Below are positions 167 to 8,513 of a DNA stretch of 8,513 nucleotides, in pieces. A model generated the notes under the pieces. That model worked only from the letters and a program-made list of their open reading frames with translations. It made no database searches and was not told the origin of the DNA. Made by a program: the position numbers and the translations under genes. This stretch comes from a plasmid: assembly GCF_055900595.2 (NCBI RefSeq), contig NZ_JBVWEU010000006.1. One strand, written 5' to 3'. Position 1 is the first letter of the stretch; each line of letters opens with the position of its first letter.

Positions 167-272
167 ACGATTTTGGTTACTGCGCTCCTCTAACTAGCCA
201 GTTACCTTGGTTCATAGAGCCGCAAACTCTTAGAACCTAAGAAAAACCGCCCCGCAAAGGCGGTTTTTCTTT
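167..272 (+). ncRNA. RNAI: RNAI antisense copy-number control RNA (approximate ends)
   Basis: Aligns with pMB1 RNAI (conserved ctgcgctc...gccagttacctt core) and ends in hairpin ccgcc...ggcgg followed by tttttcttttt at 247..274. Ends set by alignment from memory, not by transcript data. Confidence 0.6.
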
Positions 273-1791: not shown

Positions 1792-2030
1792 ATTTAACAT
1801 AACACCAAAATTGTACGCACCGCTAAAACGGCCTCAGGGCGTTTCTGACGGGAAACCGGTAAAATAGGCAACAAACCACCCGAAAACCCGCCAGAAACGC
1901 GCAGGCTCTGTTTTTACGGCATGCATGAGTATGCACGCAAGTGCATAGCGCGAAAATTCACGCCATTCAGCCAGGGTAAGTCCTGTTTCCGGCGTTCTTC
2001 CCATCCGAAAACGGTGAACGGGGACGCAAT
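1792..2030 (-). other. cer: cer-like XerCD multimer-resolution site (core 1792..1821 plus putative accessory sequences to about 2030)
   Basis: Reverse complement of 1792..1821 is GGTGCGTACAA-ttttggtg-TTATGTTAAAT. Against ColE1 cer as I recall it (GGTGCGTACAA-ttaaggga-TTATGGTAAAT) the XerC arm is 11/11, the XerD arm 10/11, with an 8-bp spacer. A palindrome-rich segment (atgcatgagtatgcacgcaagtgcata, 1921..1947) lies about 100 bp into the accessory side, where an ArgR box would be expected. Confidence 0.6.
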
Positions 2031-2159
2031 TTATTGCGTGGCCGTGAAGCGTTGCCGGCGCAGCCGGAAAACCGGTTTTCAGCACGTTCAGGAATCGGGT
2101 TCGTCGACGGCCGGCAATCACGTTATGGCAAGTCGCCGGACGACTCACCACACGATTCA

Positions 2160-2340
2160 CCGGCGACTCTTCACTAGAGTCGTACCCAGAGTCGTCACGT
2201 CTAAAAAACAACCAAACGGGGAGTCGGGTCTAGAGTCGGGTCGTTGTTAACTTATTGTTTTTATAGTCCTGAGTCGTTACCGACTCTATGACGACTCGCC
2301 GGGGACTCTATGACGAGTCGTCATAGAGTCGGATCTGTAT
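2160..2340. repeat. Cluster of GAGTCG/CGACTC repeats including a 13-bp perfect inverted repeat and a third direct copy; function unknown
   Basis: GAGTCG or its complement occurs at least ten times in about 180 bp. gactctatgacga-g-tcgtcatagagtc (2310..2336) is a 13-bp perfect palindrome around one central base, and cgactctatgacgactcg (2288..2305) is a further direct copy. Confidence 0.6.
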
Positions 2341-2484
2341 AAATAAAATTAAAAAAACGAAATTTATAGAACGTAAACTACTGATATAAAATACAAATCT
2401 GCAAAATTTTAATTTTGCGTGGGGTGTGGATATTTTTAGTGGTGAGGAGCGTTCAGAGATCTGGCGATTTTTGGGAAGGTTCAG

Positions 2485-2489: not shown

Positions 2490-2527
2490 GGGGTCTGACG
2501 CTCAGTGGAACGAAAACTCACGTTAAG
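2490..2527 (+). repeat. Tn3-family IRL, 38 bp
   Basis: Exact match to the Tn3 38-bp terminal repeat; the tnpA stop codon (2523..2525) lies inside it, as in Tn3. Confidence 0.95.
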
Positions 2528-5500
2528 CAACGTTTTCTGCCTCTGACGCCTCTTTTAATGGTCTCAGATGTCCTTTGGTCACCAGTTCTGCCAGCGTGAA
2601 GGAATAATGGCCGAGCATATTGATATGTCCGTGGCAAAGCGGGGAGAGGCGTGCGATATCTTCATCATTCAGTGTTTCACCCTGCGCCCGGAGATGATCC
2701 AGGGCTGCCTGCATATAAATAGTGTTCCATAACACGACGGCGTTAGTGACCAGCCCCAGTGTGCCCAGTTGATCTTCCTGACCGTCGGTATATCGTTTTC
2801 TTATCTCACCTTTTTGACCGTGACAGATGGCTCTGGCAACGGCATGGCGACTTTCTCCCCGATTAAGCTGGGTCAGAATGCGCCGGCGGTAATCTTCATC
2901 ATCAATATAATTAAGCAGATACAGCGTTTTGTTGATGCGCCCCACTTCAATGATTGCCTGAGTCAGTCCGGAAGGACGTTCACTTTTCAGCAATGAACGG
3001 ACCAGCACTGAAACCTGTACTTTGCCCAGCTTCAGGGAGCCAGCGGTCCGGATCATTTCGTCCCACTGAAGGACTATTTTTCGGGGATCTGATTGCCCTC
3101 TGGCAATATCATTCAGCACGCCATAGTCGGCATCATGGTCCATTCGCCAGAAAACCGAAGCACCGGCATCAGCCAGGCGTGGAGAAAACTGGTATCCCAG
3201 CAGCCAGAAAAGGCCAAAGACAAGTTCGCTGGCACCTGCTGTATCGGTCATAATTTCGGTTGGATTCAGCCCGGTCTCCTGTTCCAGAAGACCTTCCAGC
3301 ACAAAGATAGAGTCCCTCAGCGTCCCCGGTATAACGATGCCATGAAAGCCGGAATACTGATCGGACACAAAGTTGTACCAGGTGATCCCTCTGTTATTAC
3401 CAAAGTATTTGCGGTTCGGTCCGGCATTGATTGTTCTGACTGGCGTAACAAAGCGCATTCCATCTGCAGATGCCACTTCTCCTCCACCCCATATCTGTGC
3501 CAGTGGCAGCGTTGCCTGAAAATCAACCAGTCTGGCATTAGCGCTGGTGATAGTTTCAGCCCGCAGATAGTTCGCTTTTGTCCAGTTCAGCCGGTGTCGG
3601 GTCAGTGCAGGAACATTTGATCTGATCAGTGGTTCCAGACCGATATTGCAGGCTTCAGCCATCAGCACGGCGCTGATGCTGACGGGCAGATCATCAACTC
3701 TGGCACTGGCTTCACTAGCATGGAAAAACTCATCAGCAAATCCGGTATGGGCGTTAATTTCGAGCAGCAACTCCGTTAAATCCACCGGAGGGAGTAGATC
3801 ACTGATCATTTTGCTCAGTCGTTTCAGACTGTCCGGCTCATCAAGACTGGCGAGGGGAGAAATTGTCAACCGGGGCTTCGGGCCAGAAACATCGAGTTCG
3901 ACAGCCTCATTTTCGCAAAGACGTGCAGCAACCTGTCTGTAACGACTATCAAGCTGATGACCCAGAGATTTTATTGCTTCCTGCGGGTCTGTCGGGTGCC
4001 CCAAAGAACGATAAACCTTAATCCGGTTTGCCTGCCAGTCAGCACCCTGTAGTAATCTTGCACGAGGATCTCCCCACCGGTTACTGCCGGTAACGTAGAC
4101 ATCCCTCCGCCTCAGACTATCCTGCAGTTTACTGAGAAAGCAGAGCGTGTATCCCCTGCGGGTGATATGTTTTTCCTTGTTAATCACCAGCCGTTTCCAT
4201 GACCGACTGATAATTTCCGTTGGTGCGTCGTCAAAAAACTGCCGCCGTGAGCTGAACTCCCGGCTGAGGTAGTCACAGGCATTCAGAGTGGTAACCCCGG
4301 CAGGTGCGGATGAAAATTTAACGGTATTCAGCAGATGGGGCAGGAAACGACGAACGCGCCCGTACTGCTCCACCATTTCTTCATGAAAATTATCGTCTGA
4401 GGGCCGGGCAATTTCACGGACAAGCGTGATGATTTCAGCCAGCTTTTGCCTTGGGATGTAGCTGAACACCTCAGCACGAATCGATTCGTCCGGTGTTTCT
4501 TCTTTCAGCAGGTACGAACATGCGCTGGCGAGCGCCAATGCAGATTTATCCAGATCCTTCAGCGAGCGGAGCCGTTTTTTCTGCCCAATCTTTCTGGCGT
4601 CACGGATGATAACGGCCAGCATGGCGTCCAGAACGTCCAATGCATCATCCAGCGCCAGCGTTTCCCATGCAAGGACAAAGGCAACCAGAACCGCCATCCT
4701 TTTCTGCGGTGACATCCTGGCAATATTGAACACCGAAGTCATACCAGCATAACGTGCGAGATTTTTCAGGCGCACAGCCGGGAGTGTACTCAGGTTTTCA
4801 GCATGCAGGCCAAAATCGTTCAGAGTTTTCCAGCGTTCAATTGCTTCATTAAACGCCGGACCACTGATGGTCACAGGGCCCTTTTTCAGTGATTCCAGTA
4901 AAGACAGGCGGCTGCAATCAGTTGGCCCCAGCAGCATCTCCAGCTGTGAACGCTGTTCGGCTGACGGTATCAGTGCCAGTTTGTTCCACAGGCGCAACGT
5001 CGCCTTTTCCCTTACCTCTGAAATCAACCGGGTCAGCGTAGTGGCTCCGGGGAGAATAATACGATGTTGCATAAGCCACCCTGTCGCCAGATCGAAAAGC
5101 AGGCCAGGACGTTCGTTGCTTATCCAGCTCCGGGTATATAAAAGACGGGTAAGGCGAAATGTCCAGGGCCAGGCAAATTCACGATACTGATAGTGCTGAC
5201 GTATCAGCGCTGCATGCTCACGGCGGGTATTTTCCCTCTGACCGTATTCTGCAAGAACGGTGATATCACGAATCCCGAGCTGTCTGGCGGTAAAATGCCG
5301 GACGCCGGAAGGAATATGATTCATATCGGTGAGGAAGGTGCCCAGAAAACGGACACATCCAATTTGCAGGGCAATGCCCAGACGGTTGTGATCACCTCTG
5401 CTTTTTCCGATAAATTCCTTGTCTGCTTCATCAAGGTGAAAATATCGTGCCAGCTGAAGCTCATCCGGTTCACCGGTGAATCTGCCATAGCTTTCAGTCT

Positions 5501-5528
5501 GCTCAGTGGTCAGAAAGTCAACGGGCAT
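2523..5528 (-). CDS. tnpA: Tn3-family transposase TnpA, 1001 aa
   Basis: The ORF-track frame (2523..5687) has an internal Met giving MPVDFLTTEQTESYGRF..., which I recognise as the Tn3 TnpA N-terminus. Start set at ATG 5526..5528; the 53 upstream in-frame codons run into res and are not coding. Confidence 0.92.
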   Translation of the reverse strand: MPVDFLTTEQTESYGRFTGEPDELQLARYFHLDEADKEFIGKSRGDHNRLGIALQIGCVRFLGTFLTDMNHIPSGVRHFTARQLGIRDITVLAEYGQRENTRREHAALIRQHYQYREFAWPWTFRLTRLLYTRSWISNERPGLLFDLATGWLMQHRIILPGATTLTRLISEVREKATLRLWNKLALIPSAEQRSQLEMLLGPTDCSRLSLLESLKKGPVTISGPAFNEAIERWKTLNDFGLHAENLSTLPAVRLKNLARYAGMTSVFNIARMSPQKRMAVLVAFVLAWETLALDDALDVLDAMLAVIIRDARKIGQKKRLRSLKDLDKSALALASACSYLLKEETPDESIRAEVFSYIPRQKLAEIITLVREIARPSDDNFHEEMVEQYGRVRRFLPHLLNTVKFSSAPAGVTTLNACDYLSREFSSRRQFFDDAPTEIISRSWKRLVINKEKHITRRGYTLCFLSKLQDSLRRRDVYVTGSNRWGDPRARLLQGADWQANRIKVYRSLGHPTDPQEAIKSLGHQLDSRYRQVAARLCENEAVELDVSGPKPRLTISPLASLDEPDSLKRLSKMISDLLPPVDLTELLLEINAHTGFADEFFHASEASARVDDLPVSISAVLMAEACNIGLEPLIRSNVPALTRHRLNWTKANYLRAETITSANARLVDFQATLPLAQIWGGGEVASADGMRFVTPVRTINAGPNRKYFGNNRGITWYNFVSDQYSGFHGIVIPGTLRDSIFVLEGLLEQETGLNPTEIMTDTAGASELVFGLFWLLGYQFSPRLADAGASVFWRMDHDADYGVLNDIARGQSDPRKIVLQWDEMIRTAGSLKLGKVQVSVLVRSLLKSERPSGLTQAIIEVGRINKTLYLLNYIDDEDYRRRILTQLNRGESRHAVARAICHGQKGEIRKRYTDGQEDQLGTLGLVTNAVVLWNTIYMQAALDHLRAQGETLNDEDIARLSPLCHGHINMLGHYSFTLAELVTKGHLRPLKEASEAENVA

Positions 5529-6249
<721 letters not shown>

Positions 6250-6361
6250 TACGCCTATTTTTATAGGTTAATGTCATGATAATAATGGTTTCTTAGACGT
6301 CAGGTGGCACTTTTCGGGGAAATGTGCGCGGAACCCCTATTTGTTTATTTTTCTAAATACA

Positions 6362-6390
6362 TTCAAATATGTATCCGCTCATGAGACAAT
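6362..6390 (+). promoter_or_regulatory. bla P3 promoter
   Basis: TTCAAA (6362..6367), 17-bp spacer, GACAAT (6385..6390), then RBS aaggaagag before the ATG, as in native Tn3. Confidence 0.8.
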
Positions 6391-6419
6391 AACCCTGGTA
6401 AATGCTTCAATAATATTGA

Positions 6420-7292
<873 letters not shown>

Positions 7293-7352
7293 CTGTCAGA
7301 CCAAGTTTACTCATATATACTTTAGATTGATTTAAAACTTCATTTTTAATTT

Positions 7353-7379
7353 AAAAGGATCTAGGTGAAGATCCTTTTT
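7353..7379 (+). terminator. Hairpin plus T-run downstream of bla
   Basis: aaaaggatc-taggtgaa-gatccttttt inverted repeat followed by T residues. Confidence 0.5.
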
Positions 7380-7401
7380 GATAATCTCATGACCAAAATC
7401 C

Positions 7402-7439
7402 CTTAACGTGAGTTTTCGTTCCACTGAGCGTCAGACCCC
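7402..7439 (-). repeat. Tn3-family IRR, 38 bp
   Basis: Exact reverse complement of the IRL sequence. Confidence 0.95.
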
Positions 7440-7444
7440 GAACT
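7440..7444. repeat. Target-site duplication, right copy (GAACT)
   Basis: Identical to 2485..2489. Confidence 0.85.
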
Positions 7445-7484
7445 CCCCGGAATGGCCGGAGAGGAAAACTGAAGCATGACGGGG

Positions 7485-7907
7485 TCAGGATTTCTTCCAG
7501 AATTTCCACCACGGAGAATGAACCTGTGGAGAGGGTTCGAGCTTGTGTTCCAGAAGCTGCATAGCCTGGCGAAGAGAATCGATATGTTCATCACGAGCTT
7601 TAACAGCCCCTTTAAGACCATCGTTTTCAGCTTCAAGCAAAGCAATTTTATGCTGTAAATCATGTAAACCAGAGATGTTAACCCCTGTAGCGCCTGCGTC
7701 ACCTTTTACATCATGTTTTACAGTGTCGCCCCCACCATAAAGCGAGCCAAAAACCCTAATAAGCTCTGATGTATCAACAACTTTAGTATTTTTCCCATGC
7801 TTTACAACAGAGGTGTAACTTAGTTTCCCACTGTTAATCATCTTGTAAATTGTGGGGCGACTAACCTTAACAAGCCGAGCCGCTTCACTAATAGACACTC
7901 TGGCCAT
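7485..7907 (-). CDS. HTH DNA-binding protein with C-terminal coiled coil, 140 aa; function unknown
   Basis: N-terminus MARVSISEAARLVKVSRPTIYKMINSGKL is a typical helix-turn-helix; the C-terminal heptad-like stretch (LQHKIALLEAENDGLKGAVKARDEHIDSLRQAMQLLEHKL) suggests a dimerisation coil. Its ATG (7905..7907) overlaps the rop stop as TGATG. Confidence 0.75.
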   Translation of the reverse strand: MARVSISEAARLVKVSRPTIYKMINSGKLSYTSVVKHGKNTKVVDTSELIRVFGSLYGGGDTVKHDVKGDAGATGVNISGLHDLQHKIALLEAENDGLKGAVKARDEHIDSLRQAMQLLEHKLEPSPQVHSPWWKFWKKS

Positions 7908-8098
7908 CAGTTTCCATCCTGTAATTCATCCAGTCCCGAAGACAGTGTACGGAAAAGATGCTCCGCATCATCGTGGAGTTTCTCACAAAGGTCGGCCTCT
8001 ACATCAAGATCAAGCTCGTTAAGCTTCTCCAGCAGGAGCAGAGACTGATTCTGGATGAATTTAGCCATGTTCAGCGCTGTTTTCTGTTGTTTCGTCAT
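7907..8098 (-). CDS. rop: Rop/Rom RNA one modulator, 63 aa
   Basis: MTKQQKTALNMAKFIQNQSLLLLEKLNELDLDVEADLCEKLHDDAEHLFRTLSSGLDELQDGN aligns along its whole length with pBR322 Rop as I recall it (MTKQEKTALNMARFIRSQTLTLLEKLNELDADEQADICESLHDHADELYRS...). Confidence 0.9.
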   Translation of the reverse strand: MTKQQKTALNMAKFIQNQSLLLLEKLNELDLDVEADLCEKLHDDAEHLFRTLSSGLDELQDGN

Positions 8099-8099
8099 A

Positions 8100-8513
<414 letters not shown>

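Follow-up and report, generated by a model that had tools for sequence, protein, structure and literature searches.

A probable two-gene unit of rop and an ExcI-family gene, co-directional with RNAII, in ColE1-type plasmids

Introduction

What is the gene whose start codon overlaps the stop codon of rop in a small Klebsiella plasmid, and what might it contribute to that plasmid? The question arises from contig NZ_JBVWEU010000006.1, an 8,513-base-pair (bp) stretch of DNA (hereafter the window) that is the whole of a circular Klebsiella pneumoniae plasmid. For antisense copy-number control, ColE1 replicons are the textbook example, and most cloning vectors are built on them. Rop is the stabiliser of the RNA I/RNA II kissing complex, and the standard picture of a ColE1 replicon has a solitary rop gene pointing toward the origin of replication (ori). 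In the window, rop instead runs in the direction of RNAII and overlaps a gene for a helix–turn–helix (HTH) protein of 140 amino acids (aa). The identity of the two genes and the structure of their junction make it very probable that they form a tightly coupled two-gene unit. The second gene belongs to the ExcI/Exc1 family, for which a role in plasmid maintenance is proposed here with much less assurance.

A conserved junction between rop and the second gene

A preliminary description of this plasmid, made from its sequence, had reported a TGATG overlap between rop and a 140-aa HTH gene. Direct reading and Pfam matches confirm the overlap, the coordinates and the gene (Table 1). Base 7907 is common to the rop stop codon and to the ATG of the second gene. 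This start codon is backed by homologues that begin MA-VS-SEAA at residue 1, and it is preceded, at a distance of 9 nucleotides (nt), by a Shine–Dalgarno-like AGGA within the 3′ end of rop itself. The rop ATG has its own GAGG 7 nt ahead of it, at 8109..8106. The Rop protein matches PF01815 over residues 1–53, of 57 model positions (E 9.4e-29; 99.5 bits, cut-off 25), and is a member of that family. Its residues K3, N10, F14, Q18 and K25, which we take to be the RNA-contacting positions, are invariant in an alignment that includes ColE1 Rop.

The junction recurs well beyond Klebsiella. In a species-level scan of the ExcI family (one genome per species; 80 loci), rop stands immediately upstream of the ExcI-family gene on the same strand at 23 loci, with a 1-nt overlap or a 10-nt gap. 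The genera involved include Klebsiella, Serratia, Pseudocitrobacter, Kluyvera, Enterobacter, Raoultella, Pantoea, Mixta and Chimaeribacter. Of 22 species-level loci, 16 have TGATG or TAATG at the junction; the 10-nt gap accounts for the other six, which form the Pantoea/Mixta group; AGGA, AGGAG or AGGAA is found at the equivalent place in all three junction types. The partner proteins at rop-linked loci are just 40–87% identical to that of the window, and the preservation of the junction despite such divergence argues for selection on tight co-expression. The two-gene unit proposed in the preliminary description is thus upheld by a junction conserved across 22 species-level loci.

Comparison with the classical ColE1 layout

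ColE1 itself (NC_001371) carries its ori marker and rop on one strand, which makes rop convergent with RNAII; the gene is solitary there, beside the mob genes. The ColE1-like Escherichia coli plasmid L098 has rop in the same orientation. In pBR322, bom/oriT lies between ori and rop. The window resembles the classical ColE1/pMB1 locus in its Rop family, in the conserved RNA-contact positions and in the location of rop downstream of ori. The arrangement is nevertheless different: the classical rop gene (ColE1, L098) is solitary and convergent, whereas that of the window, with the ori marker on the plus strand and rop on the minus strand, is co-directional with RNAII, lies 170 nt from ori and overlaps a second gene. 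The same inversion relative to ColE1 was found in every plasmid that carries both the rop–HTH pair and an ori on the contig. The preliminary description had given rop of pBR322 the opposite orientation, and this orientation is verified for ColE1/pMB1-type plasmids in ColE1 and L098. The comparison of gene order that the same description called for sets the arrangement apart from the ordinary ColE1 layout, and the downstream gene has no characterised function.

The extent of this layout was estimated by tblastn searches of the PLSDB plasmid collection. The 140-aa protein matched 2,440 records; in an evenly spaced sample of 60 of these, 26 have rop annotated where the match begins, at its first base. 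Rop matched 3,506 records, 2,343 of them with a Rop of the ColE1/pMB1-like type (60–80% identity) and 1,161 with a Rop at least 80% identical to the window's. Judged by this count of window-type Rop, roughly one third of the rop-bearing plasmids in PLSDB would use the co-directional rop–ExcI layout. RefSeq annotates both rop and the partner gene, and annotation of the pair is routine, with well over 1,000 plasmid records showing it, which contradicts the earlier statement that rop is normally annotated alone. The rop–ExcI arrangement, though widespread, is an undescribed form of the ColE1 replicon layout, and its carriers are mostly small Klebsiella plasmids with resistance transposons, such as the TEM-1 element of the window.

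Other arrangements of the two genes also exist. In 10,060-bp bacteriocin plasmids an exc1-like gene is followed, after 25 nt, by rop; in pCKO3-type plasmids rop and an ExcI-type gene are divergent and 68 bp apart; and one plasmid (L096) has a co-directional rop with no partner gene. Contigs that closely match these enterobacterial plasmids, almost to identity, were encountered in assemblies labelled Microbacterium, Ructibacterium, Solirubrobacter, Marinifilum, Pseudovibrio, Streptococcus and Bacillota (the last a metagenome-assembled genome; L012, L025, L028, L029, L031, L033 and L035). The presence of these enterobacterial-type contigs in those seven assemblies is probably contamination.

Expression of the pair

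Because RNAI is encoded on the plus strand, RNAII lies on the minus strand and runs from just right of position 271 across the 1/8513 junction to ori, near 8265. The ori marker in the spacer between ori and rop aligns with ColE1 and its relatives, and rop starts approximately 170 nt downstream of ori on the strand of RNAII. Both genes are therefore placed where the preliminary description had put them, on the RNAII strand and downstream of ori.

A promoter scan between ori and rop yielded no consensus sigma-70 promoter. By eye, a −10-like TACACT is seen some 30 nt before the rop ATG, and TATAAC precedes rop in Kluyvera; neither is used as evidence. The sole candidate terminator between ori and rop is a hairpin at 8235..8219 with a free energy of −8.9 kcal/mol (z −0.78), which is no stabler than shuffled sequence. 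With no consensus promoter and no convincing terminator in this interval, read-through of RNAII into rop is possible, and it may be what drives expression of the pair. Rozhon and colleagues also propose RNAII read-through, as far as the multimer-resolution site (PMC2831885).

The second gene belongs to the ExcI family

The 140-aa protein scores above the cut-offs of HTH_17 (PF12728; 34.8 bits, cut-off 27) and of the TIGR01764 excisionase domain (32.2 bits, cut-off 28.8). It falls outside the MerR family (PF00376), with 13.7 bits against a cut-off of 28.2. NF038291, a model for the 'plasmid replication DNA-binding protein' rep_pAB02_ORF2/OrfX, gave 57.2 bits and an E-value of 2.5e-15; as the score is below the cut-off of 85, this indicates homology only and not membership. 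By tblastn, a Klebsiella protein that bears the annotation 'entry exclusion protein 1' is 34% identical to it (E 7e-14), and one database relative is named 'Excl1 protein'. The window protein aligns end to end with ColE1 Exc1 at 24% identity, with the same order of domains. By this homology, the downstream gene is a homologue of the long-named exc1 gene of ColE1. The family is large, as 771 clusters at 50% identity match the protein. A sequence search of solved structures returned generic coiled-coil matches alone, and scans of the protein with PADLOC and PHROG gave weak HTH or excisionase matches only.

ColE1 Exc1 shares with the window protein an N-terminal winged helix of the pattern MA-V...DTSELIRV.G, a helical middle and an aromatic and basic C-terminus. 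Like the window gene, exc1 is a backbone gene of ColE1-like plasmids near cer. The two genes differ in position: ColE1 exc1 lies far from rop, is followed by exc2, points to the XerD side of cer and is on the strand opposite RNAII, whereas the window gene overlaps rop, follows ori and points to the XerC side of its cer-like site. In every ColE1-like Rahnella plasmid, an ExcI gene accompanies ori and a multimer-resolution site (PMC2831885).

The names of these homologues raise the alternative that the protein acts in entry exclusion, as the legacy annotation 'entry exclusion protein 1' has it. Several records do carry such a name, and the gene for the Exc2 lipoprotein is a neighbour in ColE1 and in cloacin plasmids. 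The exclusion activity has, however, been reassigned to mbeD, and the function of ExcI is described as unknown (PMC2831885). The product is also predicted to be a cytoplasmic DNA-binding protein, and by its backbone annotation the window plasmid has no exc2, no mob genes and no relaxase, which leaves entry exclusion extremely improbable.

A second relative is OrfX of Acinetobacter, so named by the Hall laboratory. It is an HTH protein of unknown function whose gene always lies downstream of a Rep_3 initiator gene and co-occurs with pdif sites (PMC9927589, PMC13141974). The N-terminal 54 residues of the window protein are 39% identical to A. baumannii OrfX (pairwise E 2e-9), and in both proteins the homologous N-terminal domain is followed by a helical middle and a basic amphipathic C-terminus. 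The genes are alike in context as well, since each overlaps the preceding replication gene and is followed by an Xer site in the same orientation; in an 8,731-bp A. baumannii plasmid, orfX shares 8 nt with repM and has a pdif site 308 bp downstream. OrfX differs in that its upstream partner is an iteron-type initiator, in its length of 191 aa and in its long low-complexity linker.

Predicted fold and C-terminal tail

An AlphaFold2 model of the protein, built on an alignment of 95 sequences, has a mean predicted local distance difference test (pLDDT) score of 87. It comprises a winged helix of beta-alpha-alpha-beta-beta-alpha topology at residues 3–53, a low-confidence flexible linker at residues 54–77, a single 45-residue helix at residues 78–122 and a short terminal helix at residues 133–137. 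The HTH and the one long helix correspond to the HTH plus coiled-coil-type helix of the preliminary description. The best Foldseek matches are Streptomyces BldC, mycobacteriophage Pukovnik Xis, the RdfS excisionase and the phage P2 DNA-binding protein 4lhf, with target template modelling (TM) scores of 0.46–0.77. Topology and matches together identify the predicted fold as a winged helix of the excisionase type. Compared with excisionase and BldC proteins, the window protein shares the domain and the fold and adds the long helix and a membrane-type tail. The window plasmid differs from excisionase systems in having no integrase or attachment site, and its backbone has no recombinase; any hint of a role in recombination directionality comes from the recombinase genes upstream of relatives and the Xer sites downstream, and is indirect.

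The tail was characterised by counting amino acids over 120 full-length representatives. In the last 10 residues, tryptophan makes up 14.8% (0.27% in the rest of the protein), tryptophan and phenylalanine together 26% (1.5%), and lysine and arginine 29% (14%), and aspartate and glutamate fall to 2.4% (14.4%). On these frequencies the C-terminal tail is the family's most distinctive conserved feature. It comes in two kinds, PWWKFWKK and KGF[FL]KRLF(G), and many members have the latter. ColE1 Exc1 ends in GFWSRLFGR, A. baumannii OrfX in KKRGLFGRVLNAVF and one family member in KGFLKRLFKY. The membrane-targeting tag of E. coli MinD is KGFLKRLFGG (PMC5471200). The MinD tag is, like the tails of the ExcI family, a short terminal segment rich in aromatic and basic residues, and several members are nearly identical to it; the tail of the window protein, PWWKFWKKS, is the tryptophan-rich variant. 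From the model and the tail, we infer a DNA-binding protein that is probably dimeric and able to attach to the membrane.

Gene neighbourhood and Xer sites

The company kept by ExcI-family genes is informative. Across the 80 species-level loci, the upstream gene on the same strand, where it is not rop, is a Rep_3 initiator gene at 16 loci (2–15 nt away in 14 and 76 nt in 2), a tyrosine recombinase gene at 15 (gap 55–69 nt) or a serine resolvase gene at 2 (gap 60–88 nt); at 24 loci it was not identified or lies off the contig. The Rep_3 loci include those of Providencia, Proteus, Xenorhabdus, Photorhabdus, Cedecea and Shimwellia.

An Xer-type site was found downstream of the gene at 27 loci, and in all 27 the XerC arm comes first relative to the direction of the gene. 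Ten Rep_3-linked loci from different genera (L020, L022, L032, L037, L040, L041, L043, L044, L046 and L056) have the Xer site exactly 141–142 bp past the stop codon. Within this interval are phased T-tracts and an invariant TGATAACAAA box, which is some 50 bp past the stop codon of the HTH gene and some 90 bp ahead of the Xer site. In Klebsiella-type plasmids the distance from stop codon to Xer site is also constant, at 707–715 bp, the greater length being due to an origin of transfer (oriT) that lies between. The window conforms to the context described above for OrfX: overlap with a replication gene upstream and an Xer site downstream, here a cer-like multimer-resolution site (Table 1), oriented like RNAII, rop and the ExcI-family gene. 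The gene abuts that side of the Xer site on which the accessory sequences of cer lie.

Near the cer-like site of the window is a palindrome that may be an operator, followed by CCCCGTTCACCG on the opposite strand. The palindrome was met in 19 occurrences or sources, where chance would give 0.03. Three lineages have it downstream of an ExcI-family gene (Klebsiella-type, Kluyvera-type and cloacin-plasmid), 30 bp past exc1 in L004 and about 100 bp past the gene in Kluyvera.

A proposed role in plasmid maintenance

These features can be accommodated in a single scheme. The rop gene and the 140-aa gene would form one operon just past a ColE1-type origin, transcribed in the direction of RNAII, and their stop/start overlap would make synthesis of the second protein track that of Rop. 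The second protein, a member of the ExcI/OrfX family, would bind DNA through its excisionase/BldC-type winged helix, and its long helix would probably dimerise as a coiled coil, with the short aromatic and cationic C-terminal helix probably attaching it to the inner membrane. Its role would lie in plasmid maintenance rather than in replication initiation or conjugation. The excisionase-type fold, the recombinase genes found upstream at some loci and the Xer sites at fixed distance and orientation suggest an architectural factor near the resolution site. The target of the protein could be cis-acting DNA in the stretch from its own gene to the Xer multimer-resolution site, and the protein would serve as a plasmid-encoded architectural or tethering factor in multimer resolution or plasmid positioning. 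Taken whole, the explanation that joins a two-gene operon with an ExcI/OrfX-family maintenance factor is nearly an even call, leaning slightly to the doubtful side; the specific role in maintenance or resolution is a tentative suggestion that may well be wrong.

The main rival is that the HTH protein is a transcriptional repressor, acting on the rop operon or on another promoter of replication control, and thus a second copy-number regulator. The fold matches fit such a role, as transcriptional regulation is common among small winged-helix proteins of the MerR/Xis/BldC type. So does the genetic setting: the gene adjoins rop in four different arrangements and rep in Rep_3 plasmids, and the divergent pair of pCKO3-type plasmids, with its shared 68-bp intergenic region, is a typical autoregulatory layout. 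Between ori and rop, however, neither an operator-like repeat nor a recognisable promoter was found, and a conserved membrane-type tail would be unusual in a simple repressor. Repression also leaves unexplained the recombinases of Acidithiobacillus-type loci and the fixed spacing of the Xer sites. A repressor is consequently thought unlikely, though it deserves consideration.

Several observations weigh against the maintenance factor itself. The Foldseek E-values are weak, 0.015 at best. The hydrophobic moment does not separate the tails from internal windows of the proteins, which are equally amphipathic, and with this measure uninformative the case for a membrane anchor rests on composition and on the resemblance to MinD. 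Among the ExcI-family loci compared, neither the palindrome nor the TGATAACAAA box is a universal binding site: as a general operator of the form ACGCAAT-NN-ATTGCGT the palindrome fails, being absent from the Pantoea/Mixta, Citrobacter and ColE1 loci, and as a common target the box fails, being confined to Rep_3 loci and absent from ColE1-like ones. Truncated or frameshifted copies are common among the database representatives, and the near-identical record NZ_CP126061.1 has rop alone annotated under the match, so that the ExcI-family gene is probably dispensable for replication. In ColE1, exc1 is on the other side of cer, faces the XerD arm and is far from rop. Linkage to Xer sites could merely reflect the clustering of maintenance functions in compact backbones. 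Furthermore, recombination at cer-type sites works with host ArgR and PepA alone (PMC2831885).

A broader version of the proposal unites ExcI and OrfX in one pan-plasmid family of membrane-tethered, excisionase-like architectural proteins, which would be co-translated with Rop or with a Rep_3 initiator and would have the adjacent Xer site as their place of action. In this full form it is speculative and unlikely. If true, ExcI/OrfX proteins would aid or regulate the resolution of multimers, both in ColE1-like plasmids and in Rep_3 plasmids, and by extension the movement of dif modules in Acinetobacter; ColE1 exc1 would gain a function 40 years after it was named; and copy-number control would be linked to multimer resolution through a shared operon. 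The comparative pattern turns the functional blank of the ExcI family into a directly testable hypothesis on the inheritance of small multicopy plasmids. The same hypothesis bears on the role of OrfX in the dif-module system of Acinetobacter, which moves carbapenemase genes.

The GANTC array and the F-like oriT

The preliminary description had offered the HTH protein as a possible binder of the repeats at 2160..2340. A blastn search with positions 2140–2489 of the window gave at least 5,000 matching records, of which at least 3,385 are conjugative plasmids. The homologous sequence of pKpQIL is flanked by traM and the SLT transglycosylase gene, the place occupied by oriT, and the comparison shows five GANTC motifs at 11-bp spacing. 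The nic-region match of the window includes TTTTGCGTGGGGTGTGG, which we take to resemble the nic region of F. The F-like plasmid pED208 has a TraM that recognises GANTC motifs at a distance of 12 bp from one another (PMC3159463). Given the homology with the pKpQIL oriT and this recognition by TraM, the array is best explained as the TraM sites of a borrowed F-like oriT. The window plasmid would therefore be a hitchhiker of the 'pOriT' type, without a relaxase, on IncF(K) plasmids; relaxase-less 'pOriT' plasmids are a known category (PMC10123127). MOB-suite classes the plasmid, with its complete F-like oriT and no relaxase, as non-mobilizable.

In the ancestral backbone, the ExcI-family gene is followed by 135 conserved bp, AT-rich DNA, about 13 GANTC motifs, a GC-rich stretch with a palindrome and then the cer-like site. 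This proximity, with the array some 200 bp downstream of the gene, invites the reading that the HTH protein binds the array as a centromere- or iteron-binding partition protein. The motifs are in clear excess (13 against 1.4 expected) and phased at 11–12 bp, and Xis/BldC-like domains bind phased repeats cooperatively. Against this, array and flank are homologous to the pKpQIL-type oriT and occupy the position of TraM sites, and TraM recognises GANTC at such spacing (PMC3159463). Some plasmids have GAGTCG as array motif and others GAATCG, and each occurs with both HTH sequence types; with all combinations of array and HTH type found, a partition protein paired with its own array was rejected. 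In addition, the Kluyvera, Pantoea and Mixta plasmids and all Rep_3-linked homologues are without the array. The array is probably not the target of the HTH protein, and the earlier suggestion, already largely refuted, is very improbable.

The same oriT prompts another possibility, that the protein is a relaxosome accessory factor which aids mobilisation by a co-resident IncF plasmid. In the ancestral backbone its stop codon is about 110 bp from the predicted nic site, and the plasmid has no relaxase of its own. The rop-coupled gene is nevertheless present in Kluyvera and Pantoea/Mixta plasmids that do not have this oriT, and the family also occurs in Rep_3-linked and recombinase-linked contexts, so that a relaxosome function is considered improbable.

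A 53-bp palindromic segment of the array, at 2280–2332, with two 19-bp inverted arms and a 15-bp centre between them, has the opposite orientation in CP128780.1. The 3,559-bp backbone plasmid L001 keeps the orientation of the window, and both forms are natural.

Other features of the plasmid

The window is matched over its full length by CP128780.1 at 99.6% identity, and positions 7441–8513 (1,073 bases) are 98.4% identical to PLSDB plasmids of 8,514 bp and 3,559 bp. The backbone is a ColE1-type replicon of 3.56 kb, exemplified by NZ_CP018446.1; the 3,559-bp form is without the Tn2/Tn3-type transposon of the window. The transposon is flanked by a GAACT target duplication at 2485–2489 and 7440–7444. 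It is inserted 45 bp past the stop codon of the ExcI-family gene and about 60 bp from the predicted nic site, and puts 5 kb between the rop–ExcI-family operon and the oriT and cer-like site. The features of the window are collected in Table 1.

Table 1. Coordinates of the features identified in the 8,513-bp plasmid
Feature	Position	Strand	Basis or remark
RNAI	168..271	+	Rfam RF00106, 74.3 bits (gathering score 47)
cer-like multimer-resolution site	1792..2010	-	regular-expression match alongside ColE1 cer core
cer-like core GGTGCGTACAA-TTTTGGTG-TTATGTTAAAT	1821..1792	-	
ArgR-box-like TGCATACTCATGCA, upstream of cer-like core			assigned by eye against ColE1 cer
Palindrome ACGCAAT-TT-ATTGCGT	2025..2040		candidate operator
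F-like (IncFII(K)/pKpQIL-type) oriT	2142..2449	+	nic-region match, AT-rich spacer, GANTC motifs
GANTC motifs (13)	2142-2331		spacing 11-12 bp; 1.4 expected
nic-region match	2401-2449 (TTTTGCGTGGGGTGTGG at 2413-2429)		exact to pKpQIL over 41 nt
Tn2/Tn3-type transposon (tnpA, tnpR, blaTEM-1), 4,950 bp	2490..7439		inverted repeats and duplication read directly; annotation of near-identical CP128780.1
ExcI/Exc1-family gene, 140 aa	7485..7907	-	HTH_17, TIGR01764, Exc1 homology
TGATG stop/start overlap of rop and ExcI-family gene	7905..7909	-	read directly (plus strand CATCA)
rop, 63 aa, Klebsiella-type allele ending ...LDELQDGN	7907..8098	-	Pfam PF01815
AGGA, Shine–Dalgarno-like, within rop 3′ end	7920..7917	-	9 nt before ATG of second gene
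ori-to-rop spacer	8099..8270	-	origin region ~8262-8270; weak hairpin 8235..8219; strong hairpin without U-tract

In the RNAII/ori region (8266–8418 and 22–146), 27 clustered substitutions separate the window from CP128780.1, and RNAI (168–271), rop and the HTH gene are identical in the two. From its distribution, the cluster looks like a recombination patch from another ColE1-type replicon.

Three successive open reading frames (ORFs) of low GC content, encoding 74, 220 and 190 aa at 230–1666 on the minus strand, are the sole cargo of the 3.5-kb backbone. Pfam, NCBIfam and PADLOC gave no match for any of the three, and relatives annotate them as hypothetical. At position 361 the window has one A fewer than CP128780.1, either a frameshift or a sequencing difference, and the last of these ORFs thereby ends at 230 and not at 321. 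The lengthened ORF stops inside RNAI and crosses the expected RNAII promoter.

Finally, RefSeq and GenBank annotate a short coding sequence for a 'replication initiation protein' within the RNAII/ori region, at 1–114 (following CP128780.1) and, in ColE1, at 784–942. As ColE1-type replicons need no Rep protein, this is most likely a spurious call.

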